A DNA stretch of 64,000 bases from Myxococcota bacterium (GTDB lineage: Bacteria; Myxococcota_A; UBA796; UBA2385): contig JAKLKF010000021.1 of assembly GCA_023150805.1 (NCBI GenBank), positions 1-64,000 of the forward strand, given 5' to 3'. The position numbers and the translations under genes were made by a program. Below the pieces are notes generated by a model. It made no database searches, had not been told where the DNA came from, and saw nothing but the letters and a program-made list of their open reading frames with translations. How positions within the stretch are numbered: the first letter of the stretch is position 1; each line of letters starts with the position of its first letter. This document shows, in pieces, positions 10,207 through 51,454 of this stretch.

Positions 10207-13164
<2,958 letters not shown>

Positions 13165-13197
13165 CCCCGCCCGCCGCGGGTCCGCGGGCGACGGTCC

Positions 13198-26786: not shown

Positions 26787-27120
26787 GGGGCACCTCGGGG
26801 TGGGGGGAGGTCGGGGTTGCACAGGGGGTCGACGGTGTCGGCGAGGAGGTCGTCGTGGTCGGCACGGGAGCCGCGCTCCCGCCCCGGGCGAGGGGGCCGC
26901 CGTCGCCTCCGCCGCGCCCGCGCCGAGGCCACGAGGCGGGAGCGGGCGGCGCCGGCACCCGAGGGGGGACGGAGCGGTGCCCGCCCGCGGGCCCGTGGAC
27001 AGACCGGCGAGGGCGATGCCACCGGGCAGAGCCCGAGGGCGTGGCGGGGGGGCGACGGCGCGCCCCGTGTGTGGGAGGCCAGCGTTTCAGGCTGGTGGTG
27101 CCCCCGAGGGGACACCGGGG

Positions 27121-27193
27121 AGGGAATGGCGGGACTCGAACCCGCTCCAGCCGGCGGTCAGGCCGGTGCTCTACCGGGATGAGCTACATTCAC
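27121..27193 (-). tRNA. tRNA-Val (anticodon GAC), with an apparently 6-nt anticodon loop
   Basis: Reverse complement GTGAATGTAGCTCATCCCGGTAGAGCACCGGCCTGACCGCCGGCTGGAGCGGGTTCGAGTCCCGCCATTCCCT. Clear D-arm (GCTC/GAGC), T-arm (GCGGG TTCGAGT CCCGC) and acceptor stem (one U.C mismatch). Anticodon arm is CCGGC-CTGACC-GCCGG. Confidence 0.6.
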
Positions 27194-27721
27194 TGCGACC
27201 ACGCATCCGGGCCGGGCCATGGGCAGGCGATGGCGCGGGACGGGTGGGAGCGAGGCCCGAAGGCCGCCCCGCCCGCCGCTTCCTGCTTGGGCACCCTGCC
27301 CTCGGTAGCGCCGAGGGCACCCGGACCTCCGGAGTCGAACCGGAGACGGCGCCGGGAGGAAGGCCTCCCGACGAGACGACGAGACACGTGTGACATCACG
27401 CATGAACAGACATGCGCACAGGGGTTCGGTGCGCCCGAGAGCAGCGAGCCCCCGGGCTCGGGGGAGGCCGGGGGCTCGCGCGCACGGGGGCGAAGGGTGC
27501 CCTATGCGACGAGGTCGTCCCGACCGGAGTCAGCGCTGTTGTCCAGGTAGAACCCGGAGATCCGGCGCGAGCCGGCTTCGGGCTGGACGGGGGGCCGCGC
27601 GGTGAGGCGGCGCACGAAGAACATCGGTGCCAGGCCCATGTCGGCCTCCAGGCTGGGGTGGACGGGAACTCGAATCACCGTACAGGTATCGAGCGCCGGG
27701 AAGACGCGCAAGCGAGACTGT

Positions 27722-35283: not shown

Positions 35284-36285
35284 TCAGCGCGGGCCGTAGC
35301 CCTGGGGGTTCTCGGTCCACCAGCGCCAGGCCGAGGCGACCATGCCGTGCAGGTCGTGCTCGGCGCGAAAGCCCAGGTCGGCGTGGAAGCGGGCGGGGTC
35401 GGCCACGGCGACGGGCATGTCCCCGGCGCGGCGGGGCCCCTCGACCACCGGCACGGGGCGGCCGGCGACCTCGGCGCAGGCGGCCAGCACCTCGCGCACG
35501 CTGTGGGGGCGACCGGTGCCGACGTTGTAGACGTGGTGGCCGGGGCGCTCCAGGGCGGCCAGCGCGACCAGGTGGGCGCGGGAGAGGTCGCAGACGTGGA
35601 TGTAGTCGCGCAGGCAGGTGCCGTCGGCGGTGTCGTAGTCGCTGCCGAAGACCGTGAGCGCCGGCAGGTGGCCGGTGAGCGCCATCAGCACGCGGGGCAC
35701 CAGGTTGCTGGGGGCGACGACGTGCTCGCCGATGCTGCCCGAGGGGTGGGCGCCGACCGGGTTGAAGTAGCGCAGGCTGACGGCCGAGAAGCCCGCACGG
35801 GCCGCCATCCAGGACAACATCTGCTCGCCCTGGGCCTTGGTCCAGCCGTAGGGCGAGTCGGGGCCGACCATCGAGTCCTCGCGCAGGGGCATCGGCGCCT
35901 GCGGGCTGTAGACCGCCGCGGTCGAGGAGTAGAGGATCCGCTTCACGCCCTCCTCCCGCATGGCCGTGAGCAGGCCCGACAGGCCGCCCAGGTTGTTGCG
36001 GAAGTAGCGCTCGGGGTGCTCCATCGACTCGCCCACGGCCTTGAAGGCCGCCAGGTGCAGGACCACGTCGACGCCGGCCAGCGCCCGCCGGACCAGGGGT
36101 ACGTCCGCCACGTCGCCGACGACCAGCTCGGCCGGGCGCGGGGCCAGGGCGGCCACCCGCTCCAGGGCGCGCGGGTGGCCGTTGCTCAGGTCGTCGAGGA
36201 CCACGACCTCGTGCCCGGCCTGCAGCAGGTCGAGCACCAGGTGACTGCCGATGTAGCCGGCGCCGCCGGTGACCAGGGTGCGCAT
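35284..36285 (-). CDS. galE: UDP-glucose 4-epimerase
   Basis: MRTLVTGGAGYIGSH, YxxxK (YGWTK), and full-length match to GalE-type SDRs. Confidence 0.9.
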   Translation of the reverse strand: MRTLVTGGAGYIGSHLVLDLLQAGHEVVVLDDLSNGHPRALERVAALAPRPAELVVGDVADVPLVRRALAGVDVVLHLAAFKAVGESMEHPERYFRNNLGGLSGLLTAMREEGVKRILYSSTAAVYSPQAPMPLREDSMVGPDSPYGWTKAQGEQMLSWMAARAGFSAVSLRYFNPVGAHPSGSIGEHVVAPSNLVPRVLMALTGHLPALTVFGSDYDTADGTCLRDYIHVCDLSRAHLVALAALERPGHHVYNVGTGRPHSVREVLAACAEVAGRPVPVVEGPRRAGDMPVAVADPARFHADLGFRAEHDLHGMVASAWRWWTENPQGYGPR

Positions 36286-37514: not shown

Positions 37515-37559
37515 GGGTTCATCGCAGGGGCGACAGGGCGACGCGCCAGGCGGCCCGGG

Positions 37560-37817
37560 GTGCGCTACAATCCGGGTATGACCACCGTGACAGACGCCGC
37601 GACCCGCGCCGCCGCCCGCCGTGCCACCTGGCATGGCCAGCTCACCACCGAGCACCATCCTGTCCAGGCGTCCGAGGCCAGCGCCGAGCAGCGGCTCGCG
37701 CTGCTGACGGAGTTGTCCGTGCTGGCGTGGACCCTCAGCGGACGGCCCCTGCCGTCCTACTCGCGGCAGACCATGCCAGGCAGGCTGATCCGGCGGCTCG
37801 GGGAGGAGGCGGGTTGA
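37560..37817 (+). CDS. Small hypothetical protein upstream of, and translationally coupled to, a nucleotidyltransferase (possible antitoxin-like partner)
   Basis: 85 aa (or 79 aa from ATG at 37578). Stop overlaps the next start (TTGA). Contains an Rx4H-like RRATWH segment. Confidence 0.35.
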   Translation: MRYNPGMTTVTDAATRAAARRATWHGQLTTEHHPVQASEASAEQRLALLTELSVLAWTLSGRPLPSYSRQTMPGRLIRRLGEEAG

Positions 37818-38293
37818 GCGTCACCGGCCTGACTGTCGACTACCTGGACCTGTTGGACGCATTTGCAGCGGAGGGCGTCATCCACCTGGTGGTCGGTGGC
37901 TTCGCGCTGGCGGGCCACGGTGTCACCCGGGCGACCGTCGACCTGGACGTGTGGGTGCGCCCCGATCCAGACAACGCGCAGCGTGTGATTCGGGGCCTGC
38001 TGCGCTTTGGCGCACCGCTCGAAGAGCACGGTGTACAAGCCTCGGACTTCGCGCGAGAGGGGATCGTGTACCAGCTTGGCCTGCCCCCATGTCGCATCGA
38101 TGTGCTCACCCGAATCGACGGCGTCGCCTTTGACGACGCGTGGCCCGACCGCGTCTTCCTCCCGATGGAGGGTCGATCGGTCCCCGCCCTGGGCCTGTCG
38201 GCGTTGGTGCAGGCGAAGCGCGCCGCAGGGCGAGAGAAGGACCTGCTGGACCTGCTGCTCCTGCGCAAGGCAGGGGTCCGAATCGACCCGTGA
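37814..38293 (+). CDS. Minimal nucleotidyltransferase (Pol-beta superfamily, MNT/AbiEii-like)
   Basis: TTG at 37814. hG[GS]x9-13DhD motif (VVGGFALAGHGVTRATVDLDVWV) and C-terminal KRAAGREKDLLDLLLL motif. The N-terminal ~275 codons of ORF 36989..38293 are a shadow. Confidence 0.55.
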   Translation: MSVTGLTVDYLDLLDAFAAEGVIHLVVGGFALAGHGVTRATVDLDVWVRPDPDNAQRVIRGLLRFGAPLEEHGVQASDFAREGIVYQLGLPPCRIDVLTRIDGVAFDDAWPDRVFLPMEGRSVPALGLSALVQAKRAAGREKDLLDLLLLRKAGVRIDP

Positions 38294-38311
38294 GAATTCC
38301 GGCGTCCTCCG

Positions 38312-40624
38312 TCAAGCCGGCGGCGAAGGCCGTGGCAGGCTGAATCGAGCACGCCAGGCCACGCGAAGCGCGTCTTCCAGCCAGGCCCGCGCGTGGGCGG
38401 CTGACACGTCGCCCCCTGCCATCATCCCCGCCCAGGCGTAGGCCACCTCGTCGTCCAGGGTCGTGTCAAACAACAAGGGATCGTCCGTGCTGATGCACAA
38501 AGGGAGGACACGGTGATCATTGGGGACCACAGGTCGCAGGTGGAACATCGGCTGATCGAGAGGTGCGTCGAGGTCAGCGATCAGAAGGTTCGAGCTGGGG
38601 TTCACTTCGACTACGAGTTGACTCCTCGCCACTTCCCGCGCCAGCGCAGCCTGGAGCTGGCACAGCAGCGGCACCTCGTCCGTGGTCCGCACCGGGACCA
38701 GGCGCTGCGCACGCTGCCACCTCTCTGGCGACAGGATCAAGAGCATGGCAGCGGGCGCGGCCCCCAGGTCCGGAGCCGCGCCCGCCGCGGGGATGTCCTC
38801 GGGCCGGAGGGAATACAGGTCCGGGATGACCTGCTCCGGGTCGTCGAGCCATGTTCCCGGCACCATCCCCGCGAAGAGCTTGCGTTGCAGCTCTCTGCGC
38901 TCGCCATCGAGTCGCAAGAGGGTGCCGGCGTCCACCGGGACGCACCAGCTACGTATGACATGCGGCACCCACAGCAGATCGATCCAGCGCTCGACCGCGG
39001 GCACCCACACCGTGTCGTTTCGCTTCGCCCATGGCTCGGGGGACAGACCAAGGGCAAGGGCGTGCCCCAGGCGATCGCCCGGTCGCACCAGGTCTGTCAG
39101 CATCGGCTCCGAGACGGCCCGCAGCCCTGTCAGCAGGTGGCGAAAGGACTCCCCACAGTGCAGGGTCATGCCGGGGCCTCTGACCCCGACGCGCCGAAAC
39201 GACTCGTCCAGGCCCGACCTCAGCTCCCGCAGGGCCGGGGCGAACACCCACAGTGGTCCCTCGGCTTCATCCCCCGCCAGGTCGATCCCGCGCAGGACGC
39301 GCGCCAGGTCCGGCTCGGCCTCGATGCAGCCCGCGAGGTCGTCACACAGCGCCCGCGCCTGTCGCAGCGCGCGACGTGCCTGGGCCGGCCAGGGGCAGCT
39401 CCCGTCGGGAGACTGACGGTCCCGCTCGCGGGTCAGGTGCACCACGACAGCCCGCTCCACCGAGCCGTTCCGACCCGACTGATCACGGGCCGTTTGCAGC
39501 CCTCTGCCCGGTGTCACGCGGATCTCCACCGCCTGAACGTGCAGCGAGCTATGCCGTGACGGCGCGTCGGGGTCTACGAGCGTGCCGCCCCCAAGGTCGG
39601 TGCTGTCCCGGAACTGCTGCACGAAGCGCTGAAGCCCCGGCCGGGTGGGGTCGACCACGACGGCCTGGTGGAAGAGGCAACGGACACGGATCCACTGAAC
39701 CAGGACCGCCTTGAGCCAGGGATCCCCGTCCTTGCCCCTCCGCCGCAGCCGCAGCAGGCCACGACGGAGGATGTCGGGGTCCTTGCGGGCTTCGGGATCG
39801 CCGCCCGGGCCGAGCGGCTCCCCGCATCGGATCCTCTCCTCGCGCTCCGGAGATGACTCAGGTCGCAGCAGACGACCGCGGGCCAGCTCCCACACGGCGC
39901 TGGTGGTCTCTGCGTCCCCGCGGCGCGCGAGCCACTCCTCCAGGGCAAGGTCGTCCGGGACGCCGAGGAACCGGTCCAGCAACCGTTCGCACAGTCGGGC
40001 GCGGGACAGCGCCTGCTCCCAGCCCAAGGCGTGCTCGCGGTCGGTGGAGCTACCGTGACCAGCGCCCCAGGCGCGCCCGATGGGCTCTGGGAGGGGCCGC
40101 CCCTGCTCAAGGTGGCGATCCACGCGGCGCCAGGCGTCCGCGGGCAGGCCCGCCGCGCTCAGGTGGAGGTGCAGGTGCGCAGTGGGGATGTCCGTGTCGA
40201 GCAGGGGCGGAAGGAGCGAGACGCGCCCTGGCGTGAATCCCAGACCCTCGTCGGCGGCCAACGCCGCCACGAGGACCTCTCCGGGGACGCGCAGGGAGAG
40301 AAAGCGCCACCGGATCGTCTCGCGCGCAGCGTCGGCCGCCGTTGAAAGCTGCAGGCGGGCCTCGATGCCCTCCAGCCGAAGGCGCCGACGGGCCAGGAGC
40401 CGGAGCCAATCCAGGACGTGCCCGGGAGGCTGCTCGTCGGGCAGCGGCGTCCAGGTGGCCACGCAGGGGTCCCAGGGGAACTGGCGGGGCCCGTACGCCG
40501 CCAGGCGGTCATCGAGGCCGACGCGAAGGTCCTGGGGGGCCCACTCGACGAGACCGCGGTGGAAGGCTTGGGGGGAGCAGAGCGGCCAGGCCTCGGCCTC
40601 GGCCTCCAGGCGGAGGGTGCGCAT
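38312..40624 (-). CDS. Large divergent adenosine/AMP deaminase-fold protein (RADAR RdrB-like)
   Basis: 770 aa with the full ADA metal-hydrolase signature in order: HxH (TAHLHLHLS), HCGESF (HAGE-like), RLGHALAL (cf. ERIGHG), EVNPSSN (cf. VCPxSN), and ISTDDPLLFDTTLDDEVAY (cf. S[LN][NS]TDDP). Long insertions between the motifs. Starts 3 nt after the stop of the upstream NTPase. Confidence 0.7.
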   Translation of the reverse strand: MRTLRLEAEAEAWPLCSPQAFHRGLVEWAPQDLRVGLDDRLAAYGPRQFPWDPCVATWTPLPDEQPPGHVLDWLRLLARRRLRLEGIEARLQLSTAADAARETIRWRFLSLRVPGEVLVAALAADEGLGFTPGRVSLLPPLLDTDIPTAHLHLHLSAAGLPADAWRRVDRHLEQGRPLPEPIGRAWGAGHGSSTDREHALGWEQALSRARLCERLLDRFLGVPDDLALEEWLARRGDAETTSAVWELARGRLLRPESSPEREERIRCGEPLGPGGDPEARKDPDILRRGLLRLRRRGKDGDPWLKAVLVQWIRVRCLFHQAVVVDPTRPGLQRFVQQFRDSTDLGGGTLVDPDAPSRHSSLHVQAVEIRVTPGRGLQTARDQSGRNGSVERAVVVHLTRERDRQSPDGSCPWPAQARRALRQARALCDDLAGCIEAEPDLARVLRGIDLAGDEAEGPLWVFAPALRELRSGLDESFRRVGVRGPGMTLHCGESFRHLLTGLRAVSEPMLTDLVRPGDRLGHALALGLSPEPWAKRNDTVWVPAVERWIDLLWVPHVIRSWCVPVDAGTLLRLDGERRELQRKLFAGMVPGTWLDDPEQVIPDLYSLRPEDIPAAGAAPDLGAAPAAMLLILSPERWQRAQRLVPVRTTDEVPLLCQLQAALAREVARSQLVVEVNPSSNLLIADLDAPLDQPMFHLRPVVPNDHRVLPLCISTDDPLLFDTTLDDEVAYAWAGMMAGGDVSAAHARAWLEDALRVAWRARFSLPRPSPPA

Positions 40625-40627
40625 GGG

Positions 40628-43600
40628 TCAGGGGACGGCCGAGCGCGACGGTTTGGCGCTATGTGCGATCTCGAGATCAAAATCGGTCATCTTGTCTATC
40701 ACGTGTGATGGCAAGACCTCCTTCAGCGATTCACGCAAACTCAAGTACCAGCTGACGAGCAAGTCAGCCATGCGGCTTGACGGCACTCTGCCCGTCGCCT
40801 CACGGCGAATGATCTTGAAAAGCGGAATCCTTCGCAAGTTTCGCCAATATCTGTCCATGTTCCCGTCGAAGTCGAGGCCCACGAGTGGCCCCCATGGATC
40901 ATCAGCGAGCAGTGCACCGACCGTCAGGTACCATGCGACCCACCATAGCTTCTCGTCGGGTGCATTCGAGGGTCGTTGGGCTTGGTGTGCGTCCGCCAAC
41001 GCCGACATGAAGCGATCCCAGGCGACCCATGACGACAGCGGCGGGAGGGGCCAGGGACCATTCGAGCCGCTGAGCACCCACAGGTCGCCTGGAAGCTCGA
41101 CCCCCGACGGCACACCCTGCTGCGTGACAGCGACGCTCGATGCCAGGCCAAGCCAGGAGCCGAATACCGCCTCACGCGGCCTGGACCCTTGGAATTTGGG
41201 AATCGAATATCTCCACGAGAGGTCCCGCCGAACACTCAGGCCGTCGAAGTCCGCTTCTTTTCGAGTGTCGATGGCGAAGGTGACACCAGCCAGGTCAACG
41301 CTCAACTCGCCCATACCCAGCACTCTCACTCGGTCCATCAGGGAGCTATTCGCCTTACCTTCGGTCAATACGCCCCATACCCACTCGATGAACCTCGCCG
41401 CATTGCCGTTCGTCTGCCGGGTCGCCTCCGCGACCTTCGCCAGCAGGTCCTTCACCCCGCCCCTCCGGGCCCAGGCACCGAGCGCCACCGCCGCCGAACC
41501 TGCACGGGACCAGGTAGATGGCCCGGTCCACCTGCCCAGTCGATCAGCTCCGACCATCGCGAACGAGATGTCCTCGGACTTGTCGTCCCCGTGGTGAAAC
41601 AGAAGCGGCGTCCTGGTACTCCTGCGCTCGGTCATTTCTCCCAGGAGCAGAAGAGCCCAGGCTCCGGGCCCGAGCGCCGCTTCCGCGGCACGCGCGTACC
41701 AGCAATCCTGCCAGAACTCTGCCGACCCCACGTGGTCCAGGGGGAGCCTTGCGAGCAAGCCTACCTGCGTGGAGTCGAGCCGGTTCCCATTCGCCATGGA
41801 CAGCACCTCGGCATCCACAGGCACCTGCTCAAGATGCGGCATCATGTCGACCGCGGTCGCGTCGGGTTTCGCGTTCCCGTCATTAGGGCCCCGCTGGTCA
41901 TGCCAGAGTTCGCTGACGATCACCTCCCGATGCGTTGGACCCAGCCCGAAACGCGGATGCGACAGCGCCAGCATAGCGCCCTTCCAACGGCTCTCGGCCT
42001 GCCTATCGTCTCCATCGGGAGGCGACTTCGCGGCGATGACCTTCAACAATGACCACTCCGCGCTTGCACTCTGCGTCTGCCCACGCAAGAAGCGCACCCA
42101 GGCGCACAGGATCCGCTCCTCACCGCCCTGCGCACCGCTGGCTGAAGATTCCTTCTCAGCCTCTCGAAGCAGCGCATCGAGGCGGGCGCGATGTTCCCGC
42201 CAGTGGGCCTGTTCGCCCGGGTCCGCCTGATCTCCACGCGGGAACCAGGGCGACGGCCAGACCAGCGACGCATCGCTCCCCAGGTCGACGCTGCGCACCA
42301 TCGCACCGCCGCGGACACCGCCCGAGCGGGCCAGCGCCTCCCCCCCGCTGAGGTACCGCGCGCCCGCCGCGAGCCAGGCGTCCAGGGGCCGAGGTTCCTG
42401 TCCTTCGCAGGCGGGGCGCAGCTGCTCAACCACCTGGAAGGCCGTGGAGCGCCCCGGCGCTGGCGACAGGAGGGGCCGCCATCGGGAGGGCACCGCCTCC
42501 AGCACAAGCCGGGAGCCCGTCGGGATGACCCTGCGAAGGACGCTGCGCAGCCCCTGGGCTCGGAGGTTCTTCAGTTCGAAGGGTTCCCCCTCCCACACCT
42601 CCTCTGGTGCTTCGCCGAACAGCCCCTCCAGGAGGAGGTCCAGCGCGTCGCCCTCGGCGGGGTCAGCCCCAGCCTGGCCCGCCCACTCCAGTTCTCGCGC
42701 CAGGCTCTCCAGGCGCCGATGGGTGCTGGAGAGCGCCGGCGTCCACCCGGGCTCCGCCAGGAGCCTGTCGTTCCAAAGCTGTTCGAGCAGTTCCCGGCGC
42801 TCCTCGGTGAGGCCTCGCTCCTCAACCACCTTGCGAAGGGCCCCTCCACGCCAGCGGAGCACCCTTCCGAGATCCAGCCGGGACAGGCTCACCCGCATCA
42901 CCGGCGGGATGGTCTTCTCCACCGATTGCCGTCCCAGCGACGCGGTCGGCCGCTGGCCGGGGTCCTGAACGACCTCGCTTCCGCCCATGCGGCGCTCCTG
43001 CCCGTCCACGTCTACCTGGAGCACGAACTCGAGCTGTCGTGCGAAGCCAGTGACCAGGAAGACCACCCGGCGATGCTGGAGCAGGCGCAGGAAACGCAGG
43101 AGCTCAGGCGCCCGGGTGATCTGCAGGTCGACGTCGTCGACGGGAACCAGCAGCACGCCGTGCTTCCCGAGTCTGCCGCATCGCTCGATGGCGGCCAGCA
43201 GCTCGTCGACGAAACTGCACCACTCACCCTGGAAGCCGCCCCAGGTCCGCACCCGGCGCAGCTCCTCCTCCGGCGAGGGCACACCGCGCGCGGACGAGGG
43301 CTCCCGCCAGGCGACGACGGCATGGTCGTGAAGGCGCTGCCACTGCCCCTTTAAGTTGAGCTCCCCCCGCCCGGCCCGTCGATCCAGCTCGTCCAGTCGC
43401 GCAGAGCCCGTCTCCAGACCCAGCCGGGTGACCTCGTCCACCAGCGGCTCGAAGGCCTGAAGGATCCATGCCAGCAGCGGCAGGCCGGGGGGAAGTGGAT
43501 CGAAGTCCAGGGGCCGGGTCGGGAGCACGCTGCCATGGATCTCTGCCACCCAGGCTGGCGGGGCGTCCCTCTGCTGGAGCCTGTCCAGCAGGGTAAGGAG

Positions 43601-43846
43601 CAAGGAGGTCTTGCCGGTGCCCCGGTCGCCATCGACCATCACCACGCGCGGCGTGCGGCCGCTGTCCATCGCCAGCCAGGGCATGGAATCGGTCGCGGGC
43701 GACCTCGTCGTGGGGTTCGCAATGTCGGTGAGCACACCCTGCAGGCGACCGACCAGCTCCGTCAGGAGGCGTCGGTCGTCGTCGACCAGCTCCTCCTCTC
43801 GGAGGGGACGAGTGTCGGCGGGCAAGTGCCAGGACGAAGCGAGCAT
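40628..43846 (-). CDS. Large P-loop NTPase (AAA/KAP-like; RADAR RdrA-like)
   Basis: 1072 aa. Walker A VVMVDGDRGTGKTSLLLTLL near the N-terminus, Walker B VLLVPVDDVDL. ~800 aa of non-repetitive C-terminal sequence. SD-like gagg upstream of the ATG at 43846. Confidence 0.7.
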   Translation of the reverse strand: MLASSWHLPADTRPLREEELVDDDRRLLTELVGRLQGVLTDIANPTTRSPATDSMPWLAMDSGRTPRVVMVDGDRGTGKTSLLLTLLDRLQQRDAPPAWVAEIHGSVLPTRPLDFDPLPPGLPLLAWILQAFEPLVDEVTRLGLETGSARLDELDRRAGRGELNLKGQWQRLHDHAVVAWREPSSARGVPSPEEELRRVRTWGGFQGEWCSFVDELLAAIERCGRLGKHGVLLVPVDDVDLQITRAPELLRFLRLLQHRRVVFLVTGFARQLEFVLQVDVDGQERRMGGSEVVQDPGQRPTASLGRQSVEKTIPPVMRVSLSRLDLGRVLRWRGGALRKVVEERGLTEERRELLEQLWNDRLLAEPGWTPALSSTHRRLESLARELEWAGQAGADPAEGDALDLLLEGLFGEAPEEVWEGEPFELKNLRAQGLRSVLRRVIPTGSRLVLEAVPSRWRPLLSPAPGRSTAFQVVEQLRPACEGQEPRPLDAWLAAGARYLSGGEALARSGGVRGGAMVRSVDLGSDASLVWPSPWFPRGDQADPGEQAHWREHRARLDALLREAEKESSASGAQGGEERILCAWVRFLRGQTQSASAEWSLLKVIAAKSPPDGDDRQAESRWKGAMLALSHPRFGLGPTHREVIVSELWHDQRGPNDGNAKPDATAVDMMPHLEQVPVDAEVLSMANGNRLDSTQVGLLARLPLDHVGSAEFWQDCWYARAAEAALGPGAWALLLLGEMTERRSTRTPLLFHHGDDKSEDISFAMVGADRLGRWTGPSTWSRAGSAAVALGAWARRGGVKDLLAKVAEATRQTNGNAARFIEWVWGVLTEGKANSSLMDRVRVLGMGELSVDLAGVTFAIDTRKEADFDGLSVRRDLSWRYSIPKFQGSRPREAVFGSWLGLASSVAVTQQGVPSGVELPGDLWVLSGSNGPWPLPPLSSWVAWDRFMSALADAHQAQRPSNAPDEKLWWVAWYLTVGALLADDPWGPLVGLDFDGNMDRYWRNLRRIPLFKIIRREATGRVPSSRMADLLVSWYLSLRESLKEVLPSHVIDKMTDFDLEIAHSAKPSRSAVP

Positions 43847-43923
43847 CGGGCAAGACCTCAGTGGGGAGAAGAACCCCCGGCCAGCCTACGCAGTGATTCC
43901 GTCCGGATCAACCGCCCCCCGCC

Positions 43924-44736
43924 CTACAGCACCGACTCGCCCACCACGACCTGGTCGCCGGCCAGCACGGGCACGTCGGGGTCCTTGCCCTTCAGGATGC
44001 GGCGCACGTTGACGCGGATGCGCTGGTCCCCGCGCAGCAGGGTGACGCGGCCCAGGTTGGCGGCGTCGGCGGCGCCGCCGGCCTCGGTGATGGCGCGGGC
44101 GACGGTCAGCCCCTCGCGGAAGGCGACGGAGCCCGGCTTGCTGACCTGGCCGGAGACGTAGACCAGGCTCTCGGGCACGAAGATCACGTCCCCGCCGGCC
44201 AGCGCCACGTTGCCGACCCCGCGGGAGACCAGGTCCTCGAAGGGCAGGACCGTGACCGCGCCCTCGCCGGCGCGGGTCAGCCGCACCTCGTTGACGCCCT
44301 GGCGGTTGACGCCGCCGGCCTGGCCCAGCAGCTCCAGCAGGGTGGTCGGGCCGCGGATGTAGTACACGCCGGGCTTGCCGACGGCGCCGAGCACCTGGAC
44401 CGGCTGGCTGCCGTAGGCCTCGACCCAGACGGTGACCTGGGGGTCGACCAGGTAGCCCTGCTGCAGGCGCGCCCGCAGGGTCGCGGCGACCTGGTCGGCG
44501 GTCTGGCCGGCGACGGAGACCGGGCCCAGGAACGGGAAGTCGATGCGCCCGGCCTCGTCCACCGGCACGCTGCGCGAGAGGTCGGCCTCGCCGTAGACCT
44601 GGATCTTGAGCACGTCGCCGTGCCCCACCGCGTAGCCGGCGACGGGGGCCGGGCTGGCGGGAGGCGAGGCGCCCGCGGGCTCCTGCGCGCGGGCCACGCC
44701 GAGCAGGAGGACCAGCAGGAGGGAGGGCGCGGGCAT
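43924..44736 (-). CDS. wza: Polysaccharide export outer-membrane protein (Wza/EpsY family)
   Basis: Signal peptide, Poly_export motif region (GYAVGHGDVLKIQVYGEADLS...PVDEAGRIDFPFLGPVSVAGQT) and SLBB-like C-terminus. Confidence 0.8.
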   Translation of the reverse strand: MPAPSLLLVLLLGVARAQEPAGASPPASPAPVAGYAVGHGDVLKIQVYGEADLSRSVPVDEAGRIDFPFLGPVSVAGQTADQVAATLRARLQQGYLVDPQVTVWVEAYGSQPVQVLGAVGKPGVYYIRGPTTLLELLGQAGGVNRQGVNEVRLTRAGEGAVTVLPFEDLVSRGVGNVALAGGDVIFVPESLVYVSGQVSKPGSVAFREGLTVARAITEAGGAADAANLGRVTLLRGDQRIRVNVRRILKGKDPDVPVLAGDQVVVGESVL

Positions 44737-44763: not shown

Positions 44764-45459
44764 CTAACACCCCGGCGGGGGCACCTCGGCCCCCCGCGCC
44801 CAGGTCAGCAGCAGGTCGCCGTGGCGCTGCCAGCCGGCGGGCCGCGGGGGCAGGCCCTCGACCCACCAGCGCAGGCTGCCCTCGGGGGCCAGGGGTCCGG
44901 GGCCGGGCAGCTCCAGCCGCACCGCGCGGGGGTCCAGCCGCAGGCCGGTCCGCAGGACCTTGAGCGCGGCCTCCCGCGCCGACCACAGCAGGTTGGCGCG
45001 CAGGGCCGGGTCGGGGCTGGCCCGCACGGCGGCCGCCTCGTCCGGCCAGAGCCACTGGTCGAGGAAGGCCTCGCTGCGCGGCTCGATCCGCTCCAGGTCG
45101 ACGCCGACGCCGAGTCCGACGCCAGCGGCGGCGGGGGCCAGGGCGGCGGGGGCCAGGGCGGCGGCGGCGTGCCCGTCGCGGTGGCTGATCGACAGCGACA
45201 GGGCCAGGGGGCGGCCGTCCAGCCAGGGCTCGGGGGCGCCGTCGGCGGCCGGACGGACGTCCAGCCGCGGCGCGGAAGACACGGGCAGCCCCAGGTGCAG
45301 GCAGAGCAGGCGCGCGGCGGCGTAGCGTCCCAGCAGGTGATCGCGGCGACGGCGCTCGGTGCGCAGGGCGAGGACGCGCGCCGCGGCTGCGGGGTGCAGC
45401 CAGCCCGGGTCGGCGGGCAGGTCGGCGGCCGAGACCAGCACCAGCAGCGGCGCGCTCAT
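44764..45459 (-). CDS. 4'-phosphopantetheinyl transferase (Sfp/EntD type)
   Basis: ATG at 45459. GVDLERI (GxDxE) and WSAREAALK (W/FSAKEA) motifs. ATGA overlap with the upstream GT4. Confidence 0.7.
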   Translation of the reverse strand: MSAPLLVLVSAADLPADPGWLHPAAAARVLALRTERRRRDHLLGRYAAARLLCLHLGLPVSSAPRLDVRPAADGAPEPWLDGRPLALSLSISHRDGHAAAALAPAALAPAAAGVGLGVGVDLERIEPRSEAFLDQWLWPDEAAAVRASPDPALRANLLWSAREAALKVLRTGLRLDPRAVRLELPGPGPLAPEGSLRWWVEGLPPRPAGWQRHGDLLLTWARGAEVPPPGC

Positions 45460-46562
45460 CGCCCCTGCCGCAGCGCCCGGTAGGCGGCCTCGTAGGCGGC
45501 GGCCATCACGGGCAGGTCGAAGCGCTCCCGGGCGACCCGGCGACCGCGCTGGCCCGCCTGCCGGGCTGCGGGCAGGTCGGTCAGCAGCGCGCGCAGGGCG
45601 CGAGCCAGCGCGGGGGGGTCGCGCGGCGGCACCAGGGCGCCGGTGGAGGCGTCGACCAGCTCGGGCACGCAGCCGACGGCGGTGGCGACGACGGGCAGGC
45701 CGGCGGAGAGGGCCTCCATCACGACGAGGGGGTTGCCCTCGTAGGTCGACGACAGCACGAAGGCGTCGGCCGCGGCCATCAGCTCGGGCACGTCGCGCCG
45801 CACGCCCAGGAAGCGGACCCGCTCGCCCAGGCCCAGCGCGTCCGCCAGGGCCTCCAGCTCGGGCCGCAGCTCGCCCTCGCCGGCCAGCAGCAGCCGCAGC
45901 GGGGCCTCGCCCAGCGCGGGATCGGCCAGGGCGCGCAGCAGGGTGGCGTGGTCCTTCTGGGCGTTGAGCCGCCCGGCGGCCAGCAGCACGGGCAGGTCGT
46001 CGGCCAGGCCCAGCTCCCGGCGCACGGCCTGCCGGACCTCTGCCGGCCGCTGGAAGGCGGCGACGTCGACGCCGTTGGGGATGGTGAAGCGGGCGGGCAC
46101 CCCGTACAGCCGCTGCACGCTGTCGGCGACGGCCTGGCCGATGGCGACCGGCGCCACCCCCGCCCGGAAGGCCAGGTGGTGGGCGGCCTGGCCCAGGCGG
46201 TCGGCCTCGTGCTCCGCCAGGTTGTGCACGGTGTGCAGCACGGGGGCCCGGGGCCACGCCAGCCGGGCCGGCAGGACGTACTTCACGGTGTGCAGGTGGG
46301 TGTGGATCACGTCGGGCCGCAGCCGCCGCAGCAGCCGGGCCAGGCGGGGCACCACCCGCGGCTCCAGGCCCAGGCCCTTGTCCAGGAAGGCCAGTCCGAC
46401 CCCCGCGGCCCGCAGCTCGGCCTCGATGAAGCTGCCCGCCGGCGGGCCCAGCGCGCAGACGGTGACCCGGTGGCCGCGGGCCTGCAGGGCCACGGCGAGC
46501 AGGCCGACGATGCGCTCGGCGCCGCCGACCGTGAGCGAGGGGATCACCTGGAGGACGTGCAT
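45456..46562 (-). CDS. Glycosyltransferase family 4
   Basis: ATG at 46562 (MHVLQVIPSLTVGGAE). GT4 C-terminal EGNPLVVMEALSAGLPVV motif. ATGA overlaps at both ends. Confidence 0.8.
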   Translation of the reverse strand: MHVLQVIPSLTVGGAERIVGLLAVALQARGHRVTVCALGPPAGSFIEAELRAAGVGLAFLDKGLGLEPRVVPRLARLLRRLRPDVIHTHLHTVKYVLPARLAWPRAPVLHTVHNLAEHEADRLGQAAHHLAFRAGVAPVAIGQAVADSVQRLYGVPARFTIPNGVDVAAFQRPAEVRQAVRRELGLADDLPVLLAAGRLNAQKDHATLLRALADPALGEAPLRLLLAGEGELRPELEALADALGLGERVRFLGVRRDVPELMAAADAFVLSSTYEGNPLVVMEALSAGLPVVATAVGCVPELVDASTGALVPPRDPPALARALRALLTDLPAARQAGQRGRRVARERFDLPVMAAAYEAAYRALRQGR

Positions 46563-48022
46563 CAGACCCGCCGCAGCCAGCGCAGGTCGCGGGGGTGCCA
46601 GGCGCCCACGAGGTAGCCCAGCACGGCGTAGACGAGGGCGCCGACGGCGACCTGGAGCAGGACGTGGAAGGGGGGCAACAGCAACAGGACGCCGCCCATG
46701 AGCAGCGAGGGCAGGGCCGCGCGCGCCACCATCGGCAGCACGCGGTAGCCCTCCAGCAGGGGCGCCATCCGCCAGTGCTTCCACAGCAGCAGCCCCACGT
46801 CGGTCAGCAACGTGGTGAAGGCCGCGCCCGCGGCCCCCCAGCGGGGGATGGCGTACAGGTTGGCCAGGATGTTGAAGGCCGCCGCCCAGAACACCCCGCG
46901 CGTGCGATCGGCCTGGCGGTTGAGGCTGGACAGGGTCATGCCGTAGGCGTTCTTGAGGAAGCGCAGCGGGATCATGGGCGCCATGATCACGAAGGCGACC
47001 GAGGCCGCGGCGAACTCCTCGCCGCCCATCAGCACGACCAGGGGCTCGGCCAGCACGACCCCGCCCACCGCCGCGGGCATCGAGATGGCGAGCAGCACGC
47101 GGGCGGTGCGGGTCAGCTCCTCGCCGGCGGCGGCCGGGTCGCCCAGGTGGCGGGCCATGCGCGGGAAGACGCCGGTGGTGATGGTGTCGGCGACCTGGGG
47201 CAGCAGGGCGATGACGATGGTGGCCGCGCGGTAGAGCCCGACCTCGGCCTCGCCGCGCATCTGCTGGAGCATGATGACGTCGACGCTGAGGTAGACGCTG
47301 GTGAACAGGGCGTTGAGCCCGAAGGGCACCGAGCGGCGCAGCAGGCCGGGGACCTCGGCCGCCCCCTGGCGCAGCGGCAGCCGCCCGACCTCGCGGGCGT
47401 AGACGACCAGGATGATGCCCAGGGTGACCAGGGCGTCGATGACCTGGGCGCCGAAGACGGCGACGACGTCGAGCCCGGCCTGGAGCAGGACCAGGGTGGC
47501 CGCGACCAGGACCATGCGCCCGACGATGTGGCCGCCCGCGCCGAGCCCCATGCGCCGCAGGGCGTGGAAGCTGGCCACCGGCATCATCGCCAGCGAGCGC
47601 AGGCCCAGCGCCAGGGCGCCGACCGCGGCGGCGGTCACCACCAGGGGGCGGCCGTCGCCCAGCCAGGCCCAGCCGACGATGGCGGCGGCCGTGACGGTCG
47701 AGAGCAGGGCCGTCGCCAGCAGGCCGGCGGCGACCGAGCGGGGCAGCAGCGACTCGTCGCGCGAGATCTCGGCGTTGAGCAGCCGGTCCATGCCCATGTA
47801 GGAGCCGAAGGCGAACAGCCCCACCAGGGTCGTGACGTAGCCGTAGATGCCGAAGGGCTCGACGCCCAGGGCGCGCATCACGATCACGTTGACCACGAAG
47901 CCGGCGCCCAGGCGGAAGGCCTGGCTGATGCCCAGGAAGATCAGGTTCCCGCCGCGACGGAGCGCGGCGCTCCCGCCCCGCGACCCGGCCGCCGCGCCCG
48001 ACGGCTCAGGCGTGCCGGACAT
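46562..48022 (-). CDS. wzx: Wzx-type polysaccharide flippase (MOP superfamily)
   Basis: 486 aa, 12-14 helix polysaccharide_biosynth protein architecture. Confidence 0.75.
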   Translation of the reverse strand: MSGTPEPSGAAAGSRGGSAALRRGGNLIFLGISQAFRLGAGFVVNVIVMRALGVEPFGIYGYVTTLVGLFAFGSYMGMDRLLNAEISRDESLLPRSVAAGLLATALLSTVTAAAIVGWAWLGDGRPLVVTAAAVGALALGLRSLAMMPVASFHALRRMGLGAGGHIVGRMVLVAATLVLLQAGLDVVAVFGAQVIDALVTLGIILVVYAREVGRLPLRQGAAEVPGLLRRSVPFGLNALFTSVYLSVDVIMLQQMRGEAEVGLYRAATIVIALLPQVADTITTGVFPRMARHLGDPAAAGEELTRTARVLLAISMPAAVGGVVLAEPLVVLMGGEEFAAASVAFVIMAPMIPLRFLKNAYGMTLSSLNRQADRTRGVFWAAAFNILANLYAIPRWGAAGAAFTTLLTDVGLLLWKHWRMAPLLEGYRVLPMVARAALPSLLMGGVLLLLPPFHVLLQVAVGALVYAVLGYLVGAWHPRDLRWLRRV

Positions 48023-49334
48023 CCTCGACCTCCTGGTGCACCACGGCCAGGGTGAAGCCCAGCACCAGGTAGGCCATGGCCAGCGTGAGCAGGCCGAGGG
48101 TCACCGCCATCAGGGCGATGGCCGCCAGGCCCAGCGCGGCGCCCAGCACGCGGGCCCGCCCCTGGGGGTCCCGGGCGCGCCGGTAGCCCCGCGCCAGGGT
48201 GCGGGTCACGGCCAGGCCCAGCACCGCCGTCGCCAGCAGGCCGACGATCCCCTGCTCGCAGGCGATCTGCAGGTAGGTGTTGTGCGGCGGCAGCAGGTGG
48301 CCTTCCAGCGGGATGAAGCCGCTCTCGGTCTGGAACTCGCCGGGGCCGACGCCCAGCAGCGGGTGCTCCACGAACAGGTCCCAGGCCTGGCGCCCCAGCT
48401 CGGCCCGCTCGTTCAGGCTGTTGTCCTCCACCGCGGCCGTGCCGGTCAGCTTGTCCACCAGCGTGCGGTACCGGGACAGCGCGGCGTCCACGTCGACCGC
48501 CACCGGAGCGGCGACCAGCGCGGCCAGGGCGGCCAGCGACAGCTCGCCGCGCCGGTGGCGGACCAGCAGCACCGACAGGGGCAGCACCACCATCGCCGCC
48601 ACGAAGGCCGCCCGGGACTGGGTCATCATGATGGCGATCGGCGGCAGCCCGAGCATCGCCAGGCGCAGCGGCCGGGCCAGGGCGTGGTCGTCCCAGGCCA
48701 GCCCGCCCAGCAACCAGGGGGTCAGCAGCAGCAGCATGGCCCCCCACTCGTTGGGGTCGCCCATCGTGCCGGTCGACCGCCCCCCGCCGCTGGCCGCCGC
48801 CATGTTCGAGAGCAGGATGAGCGCCAGGGCGATGGCGCAGGCGCGGTAGACCCCCGCGAGGTCGGCCTCGGCCAGCGCGGCGTAGACCAGCCCCACCAGC
48901 ACGGTGAGCATGGCCAGGCCCGCCAGGTCGAAGATGCCGTAGTGCATGGACCCCACGACCGCGATCGACAGCCCGGTGGCCACGACCATCGTCAGCAGTC
49001 CCCCCAGCACCGGGTGCCAGCGGACCGGCTTGCGCCCGGTCAGCATCGCGTGCGCCGCCCACATGCCCAGGCTGCCCAGCACCGCCAGCTTCGAGGCCGT
49101 CACCGGCAGCCGGGCCACGTCGATGCCCGCCACCCCCGCCTGGTCGAAGAGCATCGCGACGTACATCAGCCCGACCAGGAAGGGCGGCGAGGACAGGCCC
49201 AGCCAGGCCACGACGAGGGCGCCCAGCAGCAGGGCCGGGAGGACCGGCGAGACGGCCACGGCGCCCCCCGCGAGCAACCCCAGCCCCATCGGCACCAGGC
49301 CCCGGCGCGACGCCGGCCACCGGGCCCCGGTCAT
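48006..49334 (-). CDS. Wzy-type polymerase / O-antigen ligase family membrane protein
   Basis: ATG at 49334. Polytopic, with a large periplasmic loop and the O-antigen-ligase-like region (MTQSRAAFVAAMVVLPL). Confidence 0.65.
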   Translation of the reverse strand: MTGARWPASRRGLVPMGLGLLAGGAVAVSPVLPALLLGALVVAWLGLSSPPFLVGLMYVAMLFDQAGVAGIDVARLPVTASKLAVLGSLGMWAAHAMLTGRKPVRWHPVLGGLLTMVVATGLSIAVVGSMHYGIFDLAGLAMLTVLVGLVYAALAEADLAGVYRACAIALALILLSNMAAASGGGRSTGTMGDPNEWGAMLLLLTPWLLGGLAWDDHALARPLRLAMLGLPPIAIMMTQSRAAFVAAMVVLPLSVLLVRHRRGELSLAALAALVAAPVAVDVDAALSRYRTLVDKLTGTAAVEDNSLNERAELGRQAWDLFVEHPLLGVGPGEFQTESGFIPLEGHLLPPHNTYLQIACEQGIVGLLATAVLGLAVTRTLARGYRRARDPQGRARVLGAALGLAAIALMAVTLGLLTLAMAYLVLGFTLAVVHQEVEDVRHA

Positions 49335-51454
49335 GCGGAGGGCGTGGACGGCCCCGCCGCGGCCGGGGGCGCAGCCCCTTCTTGGCGCTGGCCGTAGTAG
49401 GGCCGGTCCAGCCCGTAGCGCTTCGCCTCGCGGGAGATGGGCAGGTCGTTGAGCACGACGCCCAGCACGCGCGCGCCGGTCTGCCGCAGGCGGGCCAGGG
49501 TCTGGGCGACGATGGCGCGCGAGGGCAGGCCGCGCCGCACGACGACGAGCACCCCGTCGGTGTGCGAGGCCATCGCGGCGGCGTCGGCGAGCATCCCGGC
49601 GGGGGGGGTGTCGATGATGACGACCTTGTAGGTCTCGCCCAGCAGGTCGAGCACGTCGTCCATGGCCTGCGAGGCCAGCAGCTCGTTGGGCAGGTCGACG
49701 CCGGCGCCGACGGTCATCGCGTGCAGGTTCGGGATCGCCGTCGGCCGGACGAAGCGCAGCGGGTCGCGGGGGTCGGCCAGCGCCTCGGCCACGCCGGGCT
49801 CGGGCGGCAGGCCCAGCACCTGGTGCACCCGGGGCGCCCGCAGGTCCCCCTCGAAGAGCAGCACGCTCAGGCCGAGCTGGGCGTAGGCCACGGCCAGCCC
49901 GGCGGCGACGGTGGTCTTGCCCTCGCCTTCCATGGTGCTGGTCACCAGCAGGCGGCGGCTGCGGCCCCTCCCGATGGTGGAGATCAGCACGCCGCGCAGC
50001 GCCCGGAAGGACTCGGCGTAGACCGAGCGGGGGTGGTCGAGCAGGTAGAGCGCGCGCTGCTCGGGGCGGGTCTCGCCGGGCAGCGAGGGGATGGCCCCCA
50101 GCAGCGTCTCCCCGAGCAGGCCCTGCACGTCGCCCGGCGTGCCGATGCTCTCGTCGAGGCGGTGCCGCAGCAGCGCCAACCCGAAGCCGCCCCCCAGGCC
50201 CACGAACAGCGCCATGCCCATGTTGAGCGGCACGTTGGGGCGCGTCGGCCGGGAGGGCGGCTGGGCCAAGTCCACCACCCGCACGTCGTTGAGCTGGGTG
50301 TGCGCCTGCAGGTCGACCTCGGTCCCCCGCTGGCCCAGCGCGTCGTAGACCTGCCGGGCGCGCTCGTGCTCCATCTTCAGCCGGGAGTACTCCTCCTGCA
50401 GGCGCTGCTTGTCGAGCAGCTCGCCCTTGACCGAGGACAGCTCCTCCTCCAGGCGGGTCTCCTGCCGCCGCAGCGTGTTCACCCGGCTGCGCTCGGCGTC
50501 GACCGCGCGCGCGACCTCGGCGGCCAGCATCTCCTCGACCCGGGCCTGGTGGGCCAGGGCGCGGCGGTGCTCGGGGTGCTGGTCCCCGTAGCGGGCCAGC
50601 ACCTGGGCCGACTGCGCCACCACCTGGGCGTGCTCCTCGGCCAGGGCGTTGAGGGTCGGGTCGTCGAACATGCCCGCCAGGACGTCGGTGTCGCCGGCCC
50701 GCAGCAGCCGCTGGTGCTCGTAGAGGCGGGTCTCGAGCAGGACCCGCTCGGTGGTGGTGTCGCCATAGGCCTGCTGCAGCGCCGAGAGGCGGGAGCTGAT
50801 CCCGTCGATCCGCTCCTCGATGTCGACGACGTCCTGCTCCTCCTTGAACTGCAGGAGCGCGGCGCTGGCCTGGTCGACCGACTGCAGGTACTGGTCGCTG
50901 CGGTTCTCGATCCACACCTTCGTGTCGCGCGCGGCGTCCCGCCGGGCGTCCAGGTTGCCCTCCTGGTAGACCTCGGCCACCAGGTTGGCGAGCGCGGCGG
51001 CGCGCTCGGGGTCGGCATGGGCGACCCGGATCTCGACGAGCTGGGTGTCCTCCCGGGGGCCGGCCGAGAGCTTGCGCCCCAGCCGGTCCACGTCGTCGGA
51101 CGTCGGCCGCAGGTCGTCGAAGCCCTGCTGGTTGTAGCGTCGGAGCGCTTCTTCCCGGACCACCCGGCTCTGGATGATCTGCACCTGGGTGCGCGCCCGC
51201 TCCCGCCCCTCCATGTAGCCGCCGGCGTCGGACTGCACGACCTCGCGCACCGCGATCTCCTGGCCCGCGCGCGGCAGCAGGTGGACCACGGTGACCGCCT
51301 CGTACTCCCGATCCGCCAGGGCGGTGCCGACGCCGGCCGCGACCAGCGAGGCGCCGAGGAAGCCCAGGAAGGTCACCCTCTGCTGGCGGATCACCTCCAG
51401 CAGGTGGCCGAGGTCCAGCCAGGGATCGGGCGGGCGGTGGGACGAGGTGCTCAC
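49331..51454 (-). CDS. wzc: Polysaccharide co-polymerase / tyrosine autokinase (Wzc, PCP-2a)
   Basis: GTG at 51454. N-terminal transmembrane segment, Wzz periplasmic coiled-coil, second transmembrane segment. Cytoplasmic kinase Walker A TSTMEGEGKTT and Walker B VVIIDTPP. Confidence 0.85.
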   Translation of the reverse strand: MSTSSHRPPDPWLDLGHLLEVIRQQRVTFLGFLGASLVAAGVGTALADREYEAVTVVHLLPRAGQEIAVREVVQSDAGGYMEGRERARTQVQIIQSRVVREEALRRYNQQGFDDLRPTSDDVDRLGRKLSAGPREDTQLVEIRVAHADPERAAALANLVAEVYQEGNLDARRDAARDTKVWIENRSDQYLQSVDQASAALLQFKEEQDVVDIEERIDGISSRLSALQQAYGDTTTERVLLETRLYEHQRLLRAGDTDVLAGMFDDPTLNALAEEHAQVVAQSAQVLARYGDQHPEHRRALAHQARVEEMLAAEVARAVDAERSRVNTLRRQETRLEEELSSVKGELLDKQRLQEEYSRLKMEHERARQVYDALGQRGTEVDLQAHTQLNDVRVVDLAQPPSRPTRPNVPLNMGMALFVGLGGGFGLALLRHRLDESIGTPGDVQGLLGETLLGAIPSLPGETRPEQRALYLLDHPRSVYAESFRALRGVLISTIGRGRSRRLLVTSTMEGEGKTTVAAGLAVAYAQLGLSVLLFEGDLRAPRVHQVLGLPPEPGVAEALADPRDPLRFVRPTAIPNLHAMTVGAGVDLPNELLASQAMDDVLDLLGETYKVVIIDTPPAGMLADAAAMASHTDGVLVVVRRGLPSRAIVAQTLARLRQTGARVLGVVLNDLPISREAKRYGLDRPYYGQRQEGAAPPAAAGPSTPSA

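Follow-up and report, generated by a model that had tools for sequence, protein, structure and literature searches.

RADAR is an anti-phage system that Gao et al. reportedly described in 2020, composed of an AAA+ ATPase, RdrA, and an adenosine deaminase, RdrB. Its hallmarks include a supramolecular complex of an RdrA heptamer with an RdrB dodecamer, and a conversion of ATP/dATP to ITP/dITP on which phage defence rests and for which both active sites are needed. Some RADAR loci also carry a SLATT-type accessory gene. Accepted RADAR systems share only 22–28% identity, limited to the ATPase core and the C-terminal part of the deaminase, and the C-terminus of RdrA is highly variable and has only been proposed as a sensor (PMC9994260). 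Defence hotspots without identifiable mobility genes have been documented in Escherichia coli (PMC10121019) and Pseudomonas aeruginosa (PMC10250203). Here, we describe an island at positions 37515–43923 of a 64,000-nucleotide (nt) stretch of Myxococcota DNA (hereafter the window; positions 1 to 64,000 of contig JAKLKF010000021.1, assembly GCA_023150805.1), which encodes a putative, distant relative of RADAR next to a small nucleotidyltransferase (NTase) cassette and lies within an exopolysaccharide (EPS) locus. We consider it highly probable that this is a horizontally acquired two-module defence island at a recombination hotspot, which is exchanged by homology of its flanks and whose rdrA alleles have been swapped.

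The source is a metagenome-assembled genome (MAG) listed at NCBI as 'Myxococcota bacterium', in which the rdrA-like gene is L6R53_08750 and the rdrB-like gene L6R53_08745. Gene calls and Pfam matches were made on public contigs identical to the window (L001/L117) and converted to window coordinates. The island and the genes at its borders are listed below, with the GC content of third codon positions given as GC3, and L002 denoting a syntenic relative discussed later.

37515–43923, no strand: the island, all DNA between the stop codons of wza and the glycosyltransferase gene, which converge on each other; absent from the syntenic L002
36375–37514, plus strand: glycosyltransferase (GT) of the GT4 family, 379 amino acids (aa), Glycos_transf_1 / Glyco_trans_1_4; GC3 0.97; convergent with wza; 72% identical to its L002 orthologue
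37578–37817, plus strand: p85, small partner gene, putatively antitoxin-like; 79 aa from the ATG at 37578, 85 aa from the GTG at 37560 used by the gene callers; GC3 0.89
37814–38293, plus strand: p159, small nucleotidyltransferase of AbiEii / DUF6036 / DUF2204 type, putative toxin; GC3 0.81
38312–40624, minus strand: rdrB-like adenosine deaminase, 770 aa, RADAR effector by homology
40628–43846, minus strand: rdrA-like AAA+ ATPase, 1072 aa, putative RADAR sensor/activator; its stop lies 3 nt before the rdrB ATG
43847–43923, minus strand: 77-nt spacer from the wza stop to the rdrA start, in which the two haplotypes of the island share about 81% identity
43924–44736, minus strand: Wza-type polysaccharide export protein, 270 aa, Poly_export and SLBB; GC3 0.99

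The two minus-strand genes of the island resemble RADAR (structures 8FNT–8FNW and 8HR7–8HRC; PMC9994260) in their order, rdrA followed by rdrB in tandem and co-directional, here with a 3-nt gap between the rdrA stop (40628–40630) and the rdrB ATG at 40624. They also share with it an N-terminal AAA+ core in the RdrA-like protein, with Walker motifs placed almost as in E. coli RdrA, and an RdrB-like protein of similar size (770 aa, compared with about 800 aa) with the same Zn-His tetrad and catalytic Glu. As between accepted systems, the similarity is limited to the ATPase core and the C-terminal part of the deaminase. The locus differs from RADAR in the length of the RdrA-like protein, which is 1072–1143 aa in the subclade of the window as opposed to 742 positions in the NCBIfam model and 947 aa in the PDB chains of E. 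coli RdrA, and in the region beyond about residue 600, which matches nothing outside four proteins. The window locus also lacks a SLATT-type accessory gene.

For the RdrB-like protein, the predicted active site can be traced residue by residue. It carries H152 and H154 (within HLHLH at 150–154, which includes H150), H489, E492, H521 and D715-D716, of which H152/H154/H489/H521 and E492 align with the zinc tetrad H152/H154/H498/H530 and the catalytic E501 of E. coli RdrB (PMC9994260), so that the protein is predicted to be an adenosine deaminase with the Zn-binding His tetrad and the catalytic Glu. It matches PADLOC RdrB with E = 3e-28, and its only sequence matches in the PDB are the RdrB entries 8fnv/8fnw (E = 6e-14). 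A word-indexed homologue search for RdrB gave only three proteins, and the family became visible only in an exhaustive search of 1.84e9 representatives, which found 2614 relatives at E ≤ 1e-3, of which 392 reached E ≤ 1e-30; most are 750–950 aa long, and the best are 40–41% identical.

The RdrA-like protein contains a Pfam AAA_16 domain, a Walker A motif (GDRGTGKT, 73–80, with G78-K79-T80) and a Walker B motif (VDDVD, 236–240, with D237-D238), near the G81-K82-T83 and D221-D222 of E. coli RdrA (PMC9994260). RdrA is the sole NCBIfam/PADLOC family that it matches, weakly, and the same holds for all ten homologues tested. Among PDB chains, its family profile matches those of RdrA alone; the match is marginal (E = 0.016) and runs colinearly from Walker A past Walker B. 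The AlphaFold2 monomer is confident for residues of about 10–350 and poor beyond (mean predicted local distance difference test score, pLDDT, 60.7), and the C-terminal part of the model was left out of fold inference. In a Foldseek search of the PDB, the top 19 matches were all RdrA (E 2e-7 to 6e-4; 410–490 columns in all but one), followed by BrxC at 9e-3, which places the modelled fold with RdrA and agrees with the Walker A/B motifs of an AAA+ ATPase. Only four full-length RdrA-like proteins were found when 5.8 billion protein clusters were searched with a word index. About 25 shorter proteins (680–940 aa) match only the N-terminal third; in both cases checked among these shorter homologues, an rdrB-like gene comes next.

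The same rdrA-rdrB arrangement is found in loci L082–L086. Two of these, L085 and L086, come from two other lineages and keep the pair with its 3-nt spacing, although the RdrA-like proteins are only 32–33% and the RdrB-like proteins 41–46% identical to those of the window. Because accepted systems share only 22–28% identity (PMC9994260), the divergence of the window pair falls within the known behaviour of the RADAR family. On its sequence relationships, the first module is a very divergent putative RADAR, belonging to a 'long-RdrA' subclade with four full-length members found. By analogy, the RdrA-like ATPase would form a ring, sense infection and dock on the RdrB-like deaminase, and the docked RdrB would convert ATP/dATP to ITP/dITP, stopping phage replication.

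Related loci showed further arrangements. At L123:8276–14031, the rdrB-like gene of a RADAR-like locus is in two pieces, with an IS21-like element (rve and AAA_22 genes) between an N-terminal part of 616 aa and a C-terminal deaminase fragment of 134 aa. At L085, a 186-aa open reading frame (ORF; L085:817–1377) overlaps the start of the rdrA-like gene by 4 nt, and a 933-aa ORF (L085:7177–9978) converges on the rdrB-like gene. Neither has a Pfam or PADLOC match, and both could be accessory genes.

The second module resembles the AbiEii/MenT modules (PF08843; 8AN4) in having two overlapping genes, a small upstream partner and then an NTase, and in the GG...DxD minimal NTase motif of p159. It differs in the length of p159, about 160 aa rather than 196 aa (8AN4) or the roughly 240 positions of the AbiEii model, and in that the p159 family is split equally between DUF6036 and AbiEii. 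This family has at least 300 homologues of about 150–166 aa, and among 30 members G28, D43 and D45 are invariant in the alignment, while Pfam matches at E ≤ 0.01 were to DUF6036 in 15, AbiEii in 15 and DUF2204 in 11. The family profile matches PDB entries 8an4/8an5/8rr5, named 'AbiEii/AbiGii toxin family', with E = 1e-5 (8an4 over residues 21–155). The minimal NTase motif and a conserved adjacent partner, the putative antitoxin, are thus both present, although p159 itself scores 15.5 bits against Pfam AbiEii (PF08843; E = 0.017), under the gathering score of 22.5.

The partner is not a second NTase. The island had been said to hold an NTase pair, and it in fact holds one 159-aa NTase and a partner of 79–85 aa that is of another kind. 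The start of p85 is most likely the ATG at 37578, giving 79 aa. The protein has no family match in the libraries searched, including none to AbiEi or MenA-type antitoxins, and is 47–50% identical to ORFs of 76–78 aa that precede NTase homologues in the unrelated loci L113 and L116, where the cassettes occur without RADAR. In the window, L082, L113 and L116, the NTase gene is directly preceded by a homologous partner ORF of 76–85 aa, with an overlap of 4 nt in all but L116, where 62 nt lie between the two. The second module therefore appears to be an independent, widespread toxin-antitoxin-like unit with putative toxin and antitoxin roles, most likely a toxin-antitoxin or abortive-infection pair. 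A TACAAT hexamer stands at 37565–37570, 7 nt before the ATG at which p85 probably starts, which points to a leader that is very short or missing; no −35 element matching this hexamer was found.

In composition, the island is set apart from its surroundings. It has 69.2% GC, compared with 75.6% in the rest of the window and 75.0% in the window as a whole, and is the lowest in GC among all 6.4-kb segments of the 64 kb (mean 0.750, standard deviation 0.018; z about −3.3). The original prediction had described a fall from about 73% to 48–62% over about 6.4 kb. The dip is real, above chance and exact in its coordinates, but its size was overstated, being about 6 points rather than 11–25, and values of 48–62% belong only to the lowest 60-nt segments (median 70%, 5th percentile 57%, minimum 48%), with 500-nt segments ranging from 62 to 75% across the island. 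The tetranucleotide signature also marks it as the most deviant stretch of the window (z = 4.0). The clearest compositional signal is GC3, which is 0.80–0.89 in the four island genes, as opposed to 0.90–0.99 in all the remaining credible genes of the window, most of which lie at about 0.97; in the flanking genes it is 0.97–0.99, and the drop begins and ends at their two stop codons. Sliding-window GC, codon and k-mer statistics, the check proposed with the original prediction, all single out the island.

The borders coincide with these same codons, position 37514 being the final base of the GT stop codon (plus strand) and 43924 the first base of the wza stop codon (minus strand). No gene or operon is interrupted, the island sitting between two convergent transcription units. 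It had been said to split the polysaccharide locus; it does lie between EPS genes, but the split is benign, with the insert between convergent stop codons and no operon broken.

Relatives were sought by a Wza scan of genomes, one per GTDB species, which gave one useful hit, L002 (CAZRFD010000061.1), the remaining hits being paralogue-level matches of at most 39% identity. L002 has the same wzc-wzy-wzx-GT4-wza / GT-galE order, with aa identities of 64% for Wza, 72% for the GT and 72% for GalE, and carries neither the RADAR pair nor the NTase cassette. Its wza-GT junction holds a different 2.45-kb insert of 61–69% GC, which encodes a putative lipoprotein (about 10735–11271) and a 520-aa protein (11581–13143) with weak GHKL-ATPase similarity and an HExxH motif (HELAH), neither of which was matched by PADLOC. 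A 191-nt direct duplication of the wza 3′ end, 95% identical, bounds this insert (L002:10545–10735 and 13187–13377), and in the distal wza copy a TAG ends the reading frame prematurely, the stop lying about 14 nt from that of the GT. Such a duplication would be expected if a circular fragment had integrated by a single crossover (Campbell-type). L002 is a 72%-GC contig with a Myxococcota-like EPS locus from a MAG titled 'uncultured Enterobacterales bacterium', a label that is probably wrong. A metagenome scan with the GT gave a further locus, L087 (73% identity), in which galE-GT is followed by an oxidoreductase, a glutathione S-transferase and a Mutator transposase; it says nothing on the junction because galE-GT is not adjacent to wza there.

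These comparisons support the horizontal acquisition into a polysaccharide locus that the original prediction had put forward, the evidence being composition, L002 without the island, the separate occurrence of the modules elsewhere and independent assemblies. Each module is found elsewhere without the other, in unrelated contexts of lower GC, and the same left and right junctions were assembled from eight runs (SRR17665565, SRR17665585, SRR17665586, SRR17665587, SRR18853683, SRR23814900, SRR23814902 and SRR23814904). As had been anticipated for relatives without the island, the EPS blocks of L002 abut, its remnant wza stop lying about 14 nt from the GT stop, apart from the different insert; the island itself is shared only by near-identical strains and not, as ancient vertical inheritance had been said to require, by all relatives. 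We hypothesize that it sits in the gap of about 14 nt that would once have separated the GT and wza stop codons, that its arrival and present exchange may proceed via homologous recombination for which the conserved EPS genes on either side serve as anchors, and that the wza-GT junction may act as a cargo hotspot.

The original prediction had also reported no integrase, transposase or border repeats, and gene calls and repeat searches gave the same result. The gene calls up to 10 kb away from the island in either direction include no recombinase (integrase or transposase), and the repeat search and blastn of the flanks against the island returned only chance-level matches of 18–55 nt, with no att-like sequence or target-site duplication. 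An integrase- or transposase-borne genomic island was accordingly rejected, there being neither a recombinase nor att or direct repeats. Matches from tblastx of the flanks against the island were discarded as compositional noise in 75%-GC DNA. Scans of the window for tRNA and Rfam families found a single tRNA about 10 kb from the island and hence no tRNA-linked integration. This sole tRNA (27118–27194, minus strand, also given as 27121–27193) scores 49 bits in Rfam and is reported by ARAGORN as 'tRNA-??? anticodon (ga)', with no normal anticodon.

In these respects the junction is similar to the core hotspots of E. coli and P. aeruginosa (PMC10121019, PMC10250203), which likewise hold different cargo at one conserved junction across lineages, likewise without integrase or transposase, with exchange consistent with flanking homology. 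It differs in its flanks, which are genes for EPS export and for a glycosyltransferase in an uncultured lineage of Myxococcota, and the term 'hotspot' rests here on few genomes and two cargo states (RADAR with NTase, and the L002 insert).

Exchange within the population would involve the island independently of its flanks, and its trace is clearest in rdrA. Compared with the near-identical strain L082, protein identity is 100% for the 4′-phosphopantetheinyl transferase (ACPS) encoded next to wza, 98.5% for Wza, 99% for the GT, 99.4% for p159, 92% for p85 and 95.7% for RdrB, and only 52% for RdrA. In 100-nt segments, nucleotide identity is 99–100% above 44281 (100% in the wza 5′ part), 91–97% at the wza 3′ end, 62–86% in the first (5′) third of rdrA and 41–82% (mostly 41–55%) in the rest of the gene, and is back at 99% at 40632. 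This breakpoint, which coincides with the rdrA stop, is sharp, identity rising from about 50% to 99% within 100 nt, and the tract can be delimited as follows.

40628–44280, minus strand: recombination tract between the window and L082, comprising rdrA and the 3′ end of wza, from the 100-nt identity profile and synonymous divergence

Synonymous divergence (dS) between the window and L082 is 1.02, i.e., saturated, in rdrA and 0.05–0.09 in wza, rdrB, p159 and p85, and the ratio of nonsynonymous to synonymous divergence (dN/dS) is 0.41 for rdrA, 0.09 for wza and 0.03 for p159. Saturated dS beside low dS in the neighbours indicates the import of an anciently diverged allele by recombination, not positive selection in place. 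In a third haplotype, L125, the GT shows 100% identity with that of the window over 1.2 kb, the sequence is of L082 type from about 37445 through the island, the first 800 nt of rdrB (5′) are mosaic and the wza 3′ end is closer to the window. This mosaic implies that island type and flanks reassort. The 5′ part of rdrB (about 800 nt, 39845–40644) is mosaic among the window, L125 and L082, with alternating 200-nt blocks of 92–100% identity, and the 3′ half is nearly invariant; the blocks imply that recombination breakpoints also lie inside rdrB.

Between the two RdrA alleles, residues of about 100–200 are best conserved (39–44 of 50 identical) and the C-terminal two-thirds are most divergent. 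In a rough alignment, the conserved part tentatively corresponds to the 'crown' of E. coli RdrA that docks on RdrB (K150/E151/R162; PMC9994260). No description of rdrA replacement within a population was found in the literature searched. We raise, as a tentative possibility on which we would not yet rely, that rdrA is a swappable RADAR specificity cassette, the same rdrB (96%) being paired with two ancient alleles (52% aa identity) that are maintained and exchanged by recombination.

Other origins of the rdrA divergence fit these data less well. Immune sensors often evolve fast, the RdrA C-terminus is highly variable (PMC9994260), and the dN/dS of 0.41 is well above that of wza and p159, so that very fast positive selection on point mutations in place might be invoked. 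However, such selection would have to account for synonymous sites that are saturated at a dS of about 1.0 next to neighbours at 0.05–0.09, for the jump in identity across the rdrA stop and for the reassortment seen in L125, and we regard it as very unlikely. Diversity-generating retroelements or other hypermutation were rejected, given the saturation of synonymous sites and the lack of a reverse transcriptase among the gene calls.

As for the island as a whole, several results weigh against a horizontally acquired island carrying RADAR. Both proteins fall below the curated NCBIfam equivalog cut-offs, the RdrB-like protein with 143.8 bits (E = 7.5e-42) against a cut-off of 800 (NF041744) and the RdrA-like protein with 24.6 bits against 600 (NF041743), which makes the pair a distant relative and not an equivalog by the NCBI criterion; the C-terminal 700 aa or so of the RdrA-like protein have pLDDT of 30–70 and recognisable relatives in three proteins only. 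No vector or donor was identified, the RdrB-like protein having no match among phage records and only distant matches among plasmids. No sigma-70-like promoter or intrinsic terminator was found above shuffled expectation, in a scan that may not suit Myxococcota promoters. No close relative offers an empty site, since all seven contigs of near-identical strains that span the junction carry the island at the same site, and with a single, distant syntenic relative, loss or replacement in L002 could also explain its absence there.

The low scores, together with the position of the pair directly downstream of wza, on the same strand, 77 nt away and with no promoter detected, might suggest that the two proteins form a purine-nucleotide deaminase complex with a housekeeping or regulatory role, expressed together with the EPS operon, rather than an anti-phage system. 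To this we give very little credence, as RADAR components are the nearest relatives of both proteins in sequence and in fold, the pair moves from one unrelated context to another, and it combines a foreign-looking composition with an allelic hyperdiversity typical of immune sensors. The uniform presence of the island in the seven contigs, the single outgroup and the modest GC gap of 6.4 points would also be compatible with old vertical content whose lower GC reflects gene-specific constraint or weak expression and which L002 has lost. Yet GC3, which is largely free of protein constraint, falls from about 0.97 to 0.80–0.89 in all four genes and recovers at both stops, both modules occur separately in unrelated lower-GC contexts, and L002 combines the closely spaced remnant wza stop with a different insert; we consider vertical descent improbable. 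A chimera of metagenome assembly or binning might be suspected because the source is a MAG and several contigs of other runs end inside rdrA or wza, but both junctions were independently assembled in eight runs and contig breaks inside rdrA fit co-existing alleles, which leaves this explanation with a negligible probability.

The flanking genes form an EPS region with the following layout.

33.7–35.3 kb, plus strand: DUF4139 protein, from gene calls
35284–36285, minus strand: NAD-dependent epimerase, galE-like, 333 aa, Epimerase / GDP_Man_Dehyd Pfam; GC3 0.98
44764–51454, minus strand: EPS operon upstream of wza, which, like its members below, is taken from gene calls and Pfam
44764–45459, minus strand: ACPS (4′-phosphopantetheinyl transferase), between GT4 and wza in the EPS operon; GC3 native-like
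45456–46562, minus strand: GT4
46562–48022, minus strand: wzx
48006–49334, minus strand: wzy
49331–51454, minus strand: wzc

On the minus strand, the order is wzc, wzy, wzx, GT4, ACPS and wza, followed after 77 nt by the 1072-aa gene and after 3 nt by the 770-aa gene. The right flank had been given as wza-wzc-wzy-wzx; gene calls and Pfam correct this to wza-ACPS-GT4-wzx-wzy-wzc. On the plus strand, the DUF4139 gene is followed, beyond the minus-strand galE-like gene, by the GT, the 85-aa ORF and the overlapping 159-aa ORF. The ACPS gene is missing from the syntenic locus of L002, where wza directly succeeds GT4. Two ORFs with gene-like GC3 were rejected as shadows of other genes, a minus-strand ORF at 37757–38311 as that of p159 and a plus-strand ORF at 43355–44161 as that of rdrA/wza.

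Horizontally acquired defence islands at hotspots that lack mobility genes are in themselves ordinary. What this locus adds is an extension of RADAR, as judged from homology, to a 'long-RdrA' subclade that is very divergent, sits in an uncultured Myxococcota lineage of 75% GC and has members that standard equivalog models would not name. It also offers three natural haplotypes in which rdrB and the flanks are nearly constant while rdrA is swapped for an allele at 52% identity, and such a natural pair with the same effector and different ATPases is a contrast that could serve to map RADAR specificity. If rdrA is indeed a swappable specificity cassette, the long C-terminal region of RdrA would be the phage-sensing determinant, under balancing or diversifying selection, and the allele pair would provide a direct handle on the trigger of RADAR.

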